From a virus (Duplodnaviria > Heunggongvirae > Uroviricota > Caudoviricetes): 11,884 nt of DNA. The notes under the pieces were generated by a model. The model was not told the origin of the DNA. It was given only the letters and a program-made list of their open reading frames with translations, and did no database searches. The DNA lies in IMG/VR virus record IMGVR_UViG_2541047849_000001; one strand, 5' to 3'. Position 1 is the first letter of the stretch. Every line of letters starts with the position of its first letter. Shown one piece after another: positions 3,756-4,313 of the stretch. The translations under genes were made by a program, and so were the position numbers.

Positions 3756-4313
3756 TCATGCAGCTTCCCGACGGGCAAGAATCCTTGAGCCGAACGCCAT
3801 CAACTCTCCACGATCAACGGTCGTAAAGTGGCAGTGTGTACGGGGGTATGGGTGCCAGATAATGAGCATCGAGCCTTTATTATTTCCACTGACGGGTTTC
3901 TCAGTGAGTGGGTTAATAAATGCCAGTCGTCCTGCCGTGATGAATCTGACCTCACTGGCGGTTTGTATCGCTTCATGAAACCATCCGACAGATGTGTCAG
4001 CAGGCAATAACATTACACATCCCACACTACTGAATTTGTTTTCAGTGGCTGCCTTTTTCACAAAAGGGGAAATATTGCTGTATGGTGGATTCAACCAGAC
4101 ATAACCAGAGGCATATCCCATTGCTTCAGGCCATGAAGTGGTTAATGTGTTCTGCTCCTGTGAGATAAAAAGCCGACATAGTCGGTTTTTTTCGCTGGCG
4201 GCAGCATCAAGTTGAAAAACGAACTCTGCATTAAGCGCAGCAAAAATCTCTGGTGGTGTGCGCCAGCTGTCGCGATGTTCGGCAGGAGTATTGCTTCCGG
4301 TGAAATCAGTCAT
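3756..4313 (-). CDS. Phage Dam-type DNA N6-adenine methyltransferase (orphan, no cognate restriction gene seen)
   Basis: 185-aa ORF with the catalytic NPPY motif (WLNPPYS) and N-terminal W-R-TPPEIF...DAAA region typical of the small phage N6-adenine MTase family; GGGGG RBS before ATG 4313. Confidence 0.85.
   Translation of the reverse strand: MTDFTGSNTPAEHRDSWRTPPEIFAALNAEFVFQLDAAASEKNRLCRLFISQEQNTLTTSWPEAMGYASGYVWLNPPYSNISPFVKKAATENKFSSVGCVMLLPADTSVGWFHEAIQTASEVRFITAGRLAFINPLTEKPVSGNNKGSMLIIWHPYPRTHCHFTTVDRGELMAFGSRILARREAA

Follow-up and report, generated by a model that had tools for sequence, protein, structure and literature searches.

Which sequence would be modified by a methyltransferase whose gene lies in a decaying prophage, and does such a gene still contribute to the methylome of its host? 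This question is raised by the viral record IMGVR_UViG_2541047849_000001 of IMG/VR (Caudoviricetes), an 11,884-nucleotide stretch of DNA that was analyzed as a whole and is called the window here. An earlier reading of its letters (the original prediction) had described one minus-strand gene as an orphan phage Dam-type N6-adenine methyltransferase next to an integration module. It held that the gene may still be expressed and change the host methylome and that the sequence alone does not disclose its target specificity. The best explanation overall, which we consider likely, is that this gene encodes a GATC-type enzyme of the PF05869 family and has become a promoterless passenger in a decayed prophage at thrW.

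Family assignment and conserved residues

Profile searches assigned the 185-aa protein to Pfam family PF05869, "DNA N-6-adenine-methyltransferase (Dam)" (E value of 2.3e-56; 190.5 bits against a cut-off of 28.1), with an alignment spanning profile positions 1 to 168 of 169, i.e., the full length. The NCBIfam equivalog TIGR01712 phage_N6A_met ("phage N-6-adenine-methyltransferase") was matched at positions 3 to 165 of 165 with 165.6 bits (cut-off, 97.05), and PHROG 111 ("DNA methyltransferase") was matched with an E value of 1.5e-77. The family match of this open reading frame (ORF) is far above chance. PF02086, the D12-class profile of alpha-class Dam proper, was not matched at an E value of ≤0.01, and the Pfam profile search returned neither the beta-class profile PF01555 nor an MT-A70 domain.

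Alignments revealed that the residues of catalytic motif IV (N75, P76, P77, and Y78) do not vary among 38 close homologues or in the enzymes of phages VT2, T1, HP1, and phi93. In the family-specific N-terminal motif DxWxTP, VT2, T1, and HP1 all share residues D15, W17, T19, and P20, and the motif is kept in phi93. The strand and loop that precede motif IV in family members, LD(A/S/T/P)xx(S/M/T), are present, and L35 and D36 are shared with all characterized members. The segment LDAAAS (residues 35 to 40) is likely a degenerate motif I for binding of S-adenosylmethionine (AdoMet). The elements conserved with all four phage enzymes are NPPY, DxWxTP, LD..A, GR..F, and N.K.

These conserved residues suggest that the ORF encodes a functional-looking AdoMet-dependent DNA N6-adenine methyltransferase. 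The call of a phage N6-adenine methyltransferase with an NPPY motif is borne out by the profile matches, and the catalytic residues are intact on alignment. It is hardly to be expected that the product is catalytically dead and that the ORF has been kept by chance. The prophage is decaying, with three inactivating lesions within 7 kb, but all family-invariant residues are present, and the sequence is the common allele of intact prophages and of an isolated phage.

Predicted structure

An AlphaFold2 model was generated from 38 homologues, with a mean predicted local distance difference test score (pLDDT) of 84 and a predicted template modeling score of 0.83. The model is a compact Rossmann-type core and has the class-I fold resembling N6-adenine methyltransferases that marks membership. 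It consists of a strand at residues 33 to 37 (FQLDA), about 33 residues of mostly irregular structure, a strand at residues 71 to 74 that ends in NPPY, four more strands, and a C-terminal helix. According to the model, the PF05869 enzyme would have no separate target-recognition domain. The conserved residues G128-R129-x-x-F132 and N144-x-K146 flank a variable loop that is absent in phi93, and the G128-to-K146 segment is a candidate DNA-reading element. The loop at residues 127 to 147 varies in length among family members and has lower model confidence (mean pLDDT of 71 to 77 in the blocks covering residues 131 to 150).

Searching the Protein Data Bank (PDB) by sequence (E value of ≤10) returned chance matches only (E values of 0.28 and 1.5) and none to the chains of Dam, T4 Dam, or DpnM; PF05869 is therefore without a solved structure. 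Escherichia coli Dam was found only as a remote fold match to the model, with 7% identity. The host-type enzymes (E. coli Dam, T4 Dam, and DpnM; alpha class, PF02086) show no detectable sequence similarity to the window protein and 5 to 10% identity in structural comparison. They also differ in motif order, have a dedicated target-recognition domain, and are about 100 aa larger. The label "Dam-type" is thus apt as the Pfam family name and for the predicted specificity discussed below, but it does not denote sequence kinship to host Dam.

The best structural match of the model was the mRNA cap m6Am methyltransferase PCIF1. This match would fit an enzyme that acts on RNA or needs a partner subunit, in parallel to M.EcoPA8orf6770P. 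The latter is encoded near int in a lambdoid (Stx) prophage and is annotated as a DNA adenine methyltransferase, and its close relative M.EcoGV methylates GATC when overproduced (PMC10810198). A small overlapping gene (DUF1317) that might supply a partner precedes the methyltransferase gene in all loci inspected. M.EcoPA8orf6770P, however, is an MT-A70 protein with DPPW that needs the PNB-2 subunit and prefers 16S rRNA (PMC10810198), whereas the window protein has NPPY. It was ruled out as a relative and is kept as a cautionary analogue with regard to annotation. We regard an RNA substrate or an obligatory partner for the window enzyme as very improbable.

Probable target sequence

In line with the comparison to characterized methyltransferases that was suggested in the original prediction as a check, four phage enzymes with a reported specificity were collected, all of which belong to PF05869 in the profile search. 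The closest is M.EcoVT2Dam (VT2-Sakai orf32; the identical protein occurs in Stx2a_F403), a 175-aa protein that is 49% identical over the full length and has the NPPY, DxWxTP, and LD.AAS motifs. Like the window gene, it is an orphan gene of a lambdoid E. coli prophage, but its place is between P and Q, in the nin region of the rightward arm, whereas the window gene belongs to the leftward exo-xis region. T1 Dam (NC_005833 ST20; PF05869, E value of 2e-70) is also an orphan and is 44% identical. It differs in coming from a virulent siphovirus, in being extended by 45 aa at its N terminus, and in having 14 aa inserted behind the strand that follows motif IV. The Dam proteins of Haemophilus phage HP1 (orf13) and Lactococcus phage phi93 (M.Phi93DAM; Phi93_04) are 37% and 39% identical, respectively, and come from phages of distant hosts. 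M.Phi93DAM has only 140 aa, lacks the loop at residues 133 to 142 and the C-terminal helix, and is encoded between terminase genes.

T1 Dam is reportedly GATC specific (Auer & Schweiger 1984; Schneider-Scherzer et al. 1990). M.EcoVT2Dam has been reported to target GATC (PMC6602927), and cloning papers on the HP1 and VT-2 "Dam" enzymes are cited in PMC7556043. For M.Phi93DAM, SMRT (single-molecule real-time) sequencing revealed G(m6A)TC on phage DNA, and expression of this enzyme alone in Lactococcus rendered the DNA resistant to DpnII and sensitive to DpnI; NPPY was the sole motif that the authors recognized (PMC4190342). The four enzymes share 31 to 37% identity among themselves. Because the 185-aa protein is closer to each of these four reported GATC enzymes than they are to one another, GATC is its parsimonious target. 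Homology thus points to GATC as the most likely target, and this assignment is probably correct. The specificity, held to be unreadable in the original prediction, can be deduced from homology with moderate confidence.

Several points weigh against this assignment. Neither an enzyme assay nor a methylome was found for the present allele or for a protein that exceeds 49% identity to it. Identities of 37 to 49% are below the level usually trusted for the transfer of methyltransferase specificity, for which Nanomotif uses 80%. The specificities of T1 Dam and HP1 Dam are background statements or are taken from the titles of papers. The tally of GATC enzymes covers the four named above, and a PF05869 member with another target may exist. 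The dam+ status of the host, on which the consequences for the methylome depend, is presumed because the proA/thrW context is about 98.5% identical to that of E. coli. A literature search for PF05869, pfam05869, and TIGR01712 returned annotation mentions only and no further specificity data. The window contains 51 GATC sites compared to 46 expected; this near-expected count is uninformative on specificity.

The modest identity to characterized GATC enzymes leaves some room for an active enzyme of the exo-xis subfamily with another or relaxed specificity, which would place a new mark on the host methylome if it were expressed. Such a specificity would fit the weakly modeled loop of variable length described above and the non-specific action of other orphan adenine methyltransferases from prophages, namely, M.EcoGI and M.EcoGII (PMC5778455), Hia5 and Hin1523 (PMC3299994), and PhiOS31_p25 (PMC7556043). 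These non-specific enzymes, however, belong elsewhere, either to the beta class with PF01555, as checked for the phiP27 homologue, or to an alpha class related to Dam. Every PF05869 member with a reported specificity targets GATC, across phages of Escherichia, Haemophilus, and Lactococcus, and the window protein falls inside this bracket. A target other than GATC therefore appears rather unlikely.

M.EcoGI and M.EcoGII resemble the window enzyme in being orphan adenine methyltransferases that are encoded by (cryptic) E. coli prophages and stay silent in the lysogen (PMC5778455). They differ in being non-specific beta-class proteins of 349 aa in which DPPY is followed by a target-recognition domain and then by FxGxG (PMC5778455), and their phiP27 relative belongs to PF01555. 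Several enzymes considered as relatives were ruled out. M.EcoGII was dismissed on its beta class and its length of 349 aa (PMC5778455), and the pair Hia5/Hin1523 was dismissed since Hia5 is an alpha-class enzyme related to Dam (PMC3299994). M.EcoGIX ("SAY," non-specific) is plasmid borne and specific for single strands. The relaxed-specificity type of PhiOS31_p25 and phiP27 does not provide a PF05869 counter-example, as the phiP27 homologue is a PF01555 protein of 352 aa.

Deletion junction upstream of the methyltransferase gene

Comparison with intact relatives revealed that the DNA upstream of the methyltransferase gene has been replaced. Up to position 4443, the window is lambdoid DNA, as in Escherichia phage PhiR30_1 and in E. 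coli CP173600 (L010; 98.5% identity over positions 1 to 4443). From position 4438 on, it matches an SfIV-type tail-sheath gene, and the hexamer TACCCG is common to both parents. Positions 4438 to 4443 are a classic microhomology deletion junction. DUF1317, the gene immediately upstream of the methyltransferase gene, is truncated at its 5' end, and exo, bet, gam, kil, and the immunity region with the leftward promoter pL are lost together with its first 24 nt. Also lost are the genes for replication, lysis, and the head, as well as some 1.2 kb of the sheath gene. The junction may have arisen by loss of the middle of one mosaic phage or by recombination between two tandem thrW prophages.

A search of 5,426 complete E. 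coli genomes did not return the exact junction, and a 38-mer across it had no match in species-representative genomes. No record was found of the 90-aa ORF that spans the junction. None of the complete E. coli genomes has the arrangement of the window; the best coverage, 84% in ET201, is an artefactual join of separate pieces.

Two further lesions were detected in the tail module. The tape-measure gene (1908 bp) carries a CAG-to-TAG nonsense mutation at positions 6831 to 6833 that splits it into ORFs at 5454 to 6830 and 6834 to 7361. An 852-bp deletion at 10218/10219 with TA microhomology, relative to an intact prophage, fuses baseplate V to baseplate J and removes the end of the former, all of gp46, and the start of the latter. 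To the right of 10218/10219, identity to the intact reference prophage is 96.6% instead of 99.9%, a drop that points to a recombination boundary. The decay of the prophage looks recent because the 5.8 kb around the nonsense codon are otherwise 99.9% identical to the intact prophage of E. coli YZ3-11. The junction, the nonsense mutation, and the 852-bp deletion support the earlier view that the prophage is cryptic.

Expression of the methyltransferase gene

The DNA that now lies upstream on the methyltransferase strand is the antisense strand of tail genes. A lenient consensus scan of the minus strand at positions 4314 to 5200 (about 900 bp) found no sigma-70-like site, and terminator-like hairpins are present on this strand at 4403 to 4381 and 4753 to 4731, upstream of the gene. 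An AATAAT hexamer is located about 20 nt before the ATG. By eye it has no usable −35 partner, and a transcript starting from it would begin at or within the ribosome-binding site. The G-rich Shine-Dalgarno-like sequence GGGGG has been kept 5 to 6 nt before the ATG. Lysogens generally do not express prophage methyltransferases of other families, even from intact prophages (PMC5778455, PMC4659465, and PMC3299994). Because the deletion removed the operon promoter, the gene is most likely transcriptionally silent; this copy is intact but beheaded, and silence is its most likely state. The proposal that it may still be expressed is not favored by the loss of pL at the junction, the empty promoter scan, and the two hairpins.

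The scan was a crude consensus search, and against silence it must be considered that weak transcription, transcription from a promoter not of the sigma-70 type, or antisense read-through may occur. If a cryptic or antisense promoter, within the tail genes or at the junction, supported low-level transcription, extra GATC activity would result; this reading would be compatible with GATC as the target. The undamaged ORF encodes the same protein as the allele of a viable phage, and the GGGGG sequence and the AATAAT hexamer could serve such expression. Set against this are the empty 900-bp scan, the hexamer without a −35 element, the two hairpins, and the general silence of prophage methyltransferases in lysogens (PMC5778455, PMC4659465, and PMC3299994). 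The intact ORF is also no sign of selection because the deletion may be recent, given the 99.9% identity of the flanking tail DNA to an intact prophage. Residual transcription of this copy is unlikely.

In intact lambdoid phages, the methyltransferase gene lies inside the leftward early (pL) operon, and it would be expressed early after infection or induction. Its product, a small enzyme of the phage "T1/HP1/VT2 Dam" family (PF05869) with a minimal Rossmann-type core and an NPPY pocket for the flipped adenine, may keep the rapidly replicating phage DNA fully GATC methylated, topping up or replacing host Dam. Such methylation would guard phage DNA from methylation-sensitive nucleases that cut at GATC. 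Protection of this kind has been demonstrated for phi93 against DpnII (PMC4190342). In the window, the gene is a passenger of the decayed thrW prophage and has lost its promoter by the large internal deletion.

Expression of the gene, if it occurred, would bring no new motif to a dam+ host. A change of the host methylome, as proposed originally, is thus unlikely in an Escherichia or Shigella host in which GATC is already methylated. If the target is GATC, the mark is redundant with that of host Dam, and a methylome screen of a dam+ host can neither detect nor refute the enzyme; the finding of no additional motif would be the expected outcome and would refute nothing. A copy without its operon promoter should not be reckoned among the likely contributors to the methylome of its host. 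It is quite improbable that the exo-xis subfamily has diverged to a non-GATC or relaxed specificity, or that a cryptic promoter drives the beheaded copy, such that the "dead" prophage still marks the host chromosome.

Occurrence of the gene and its operon

The inducible Escherichia phage PhiR30_1 encodes a 100% identical protein, and E. coli UTAK-3 has the gene with 100% identity at the DNA level. An index of public assemblies lists the exact protein in 14,727 blocks, and the gene is present in 312 of 5,426 complete E. coli genomes (about 6%), in all of them on the chromosome. Homologues with 65 to 84% identity occur in Klebsiella, Enterobacter, Citrobacter, and other Enterobacteriaceae, where the annotation is alike. 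RefSeq names the gene "phage N-6-adenine-methyltransferase" in E. coli genomes. The gene is common, correctly annotated, and already known; it belongs, as an ordinary member, to a phage methyltransferase family that has long been known and that the NCBI pipeline names correctly. Of modest interest is the reading of GATC by a methyltransferase of 140 to 185 aa that would have no separate recognition domain.

The lambda-like left arm of PhiR30_1 has the order cI ... kil, gam, bet, exo, orf60a/DUF1317, methyltransferase, orf61, TraR, DUF4222, int. All eight loci inspected carry the corresponding one-strand cassette kil-gam-RecT-YqaJ(exo)-DUF1317-Dam-orf61-TraR-DUF4222-xis-int, at attachment sites that include thrW/proA, icd, and a position beside the sfm/fimZ fimbrial cluster. 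In intact relatives, the TGA stop codon of DUF1317 overlaps the ATG of the methyltransferase gene. No nuclease or specificity-subunit gene was found within ±10 kb of the identical gene in eight other genomes, in the cassette of PhiR30_1, or, by Pfam, NCBIfam, and PHROG searches, among the genes of the 11.9-kb window, in agreement with the description of the gene as an orphan.

Two groups of unusual homologues were observed. Six proteins of 253 to 284 aa from Enterobacter and metagenomes (P0050, P0060, P0068, P0069, P0072, and P0087) match PF00145 (cytosine-C5 methyltransferase) besides PF05869. Their length does not suffice for a complete C5 enzyme, and they may be fusions with a fragment of a C5 methyltransferase or the result of miscalled starts. 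In Salmonella phages ST64B, FSL SP-030, and SeZq-1 (H61, H62, and H64; PHROG 33262), a PF05869-like region with about 25 to 31% identity lies inside proteins annotated as phosphoadenosine-phosphosulfate (PAPS) reductase, which suggests a fusion of a PAPS-reductase-like domain with this methyltransferase fold.

Surrounding genes and integration site

The features of the window are listed in Table 1. The excisionase and integrase genes (positions 1459 to 2879) follow about 880 bp downstream of the methyltransferase gene on the same strand, which confirms the proximity to an integration module. A scan of positions 1200 to 5200 with Rfam returned the tRNA only. From position 4444 on, the plus strand carries a contractile-tail module with the sheath fragment, tube, assembly chaperone, tape measure, DNA-circularization protein, and baseplate genes. 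This module is 97 to 98% identical to that of the Shigella serotype-converting phages SfIV, SfI, and SfV and 99.9% identical over 5.8 kb to the prophage of E. coli YZ3-11.

Table 1 Features of the window discussed in the text
Feature	Position	Strand	Basis or remark
proA	1-1254		Window start
tRNA-Thr(CGU), thrW	1369..1444	+	Integration site adjoining proA; ARAGORN; Rfam tRNA
Tyrosine integrase	1459..2622	-	PF00589, E 5e-48
Excisionase (HTH_17)	2499..2849	-	PHROG 2907 "excisionase," E 9e-52; PF12728
DUF4222 protein	2821..3099	-	PF13973, E 2e-19
TraR/DksA-type C4 zinc-finger protein	3147..3365	-	PF01258, TIGR02419, PHROG 54
orf61-like small gene	3464..3679	-	71 aa from internal ATG; downstream in methyltransferase operon; PHROG 303, E 5e-36; PhiR30_1 annotation "orf61"
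Methyltransferase gene	3756..4313	-	Intact, 185 aa; ATG at 4313, stop at 3756; orphan; PF05869/TIGR01712
NPPY codons (residues 75-78), catalytic motif IV	4080..4091	-	AAT CCA CCA TAC, read directly
LDAAAS codons (residues 35-40)	4194..4211	-	Model strand beta-1 and next loop; D36 and A39 invariant across VT2, T1, and HP1
D-S-W-R-T-P codons (residues 15-20)	4254..4271	-	Family-specific N-terminal DxWxTP motif; alignments
DUF1317 remnant, 5'-truncated	4310..4443	-	First 24 nt and start codon lost; window 4443 = L010 9870; intact DUF1317 gene = L010 9846-10004
Deletion junction, 6-bp microhomology TACCCG	4438..4443	.	Lambdoid early-left DNA on left, SfIV-type tail-sheath gene on right; three-way alignment, blastn end points
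Tail-sheath C-terminal fragment	4444..4693	+	Pfam Phage_sheath_1C positions 39-104/104; intact gene 1497 bp (L008)

The excisionase ORF overlaps the start of the integrase gene by more than 100 bp (positions 2499 to 2622), and the integrase start is called at 372 or 387 aa in otherwise identical loci. The TraR/DksA-type gene at 3147 to 3365, which we take to be the probable counterpart of lambda Orf73, an RNA-polymerase secondary-channel binder, belongs to the operon of the methyltransferase and is likewise promoterless here.

In the thrW-side regions of other E. coli strains (L002 and L007), the stretch of an SfIV-like prophage from the tail-fibre/invertase end to the integrase gene is occupied by variable cargo, with a DUF262 protein, a LEM-3-like GIY-YIG nuclease, and an AraC regulator as examples. 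This region looks like a variable hotspot for defence genes or morons.
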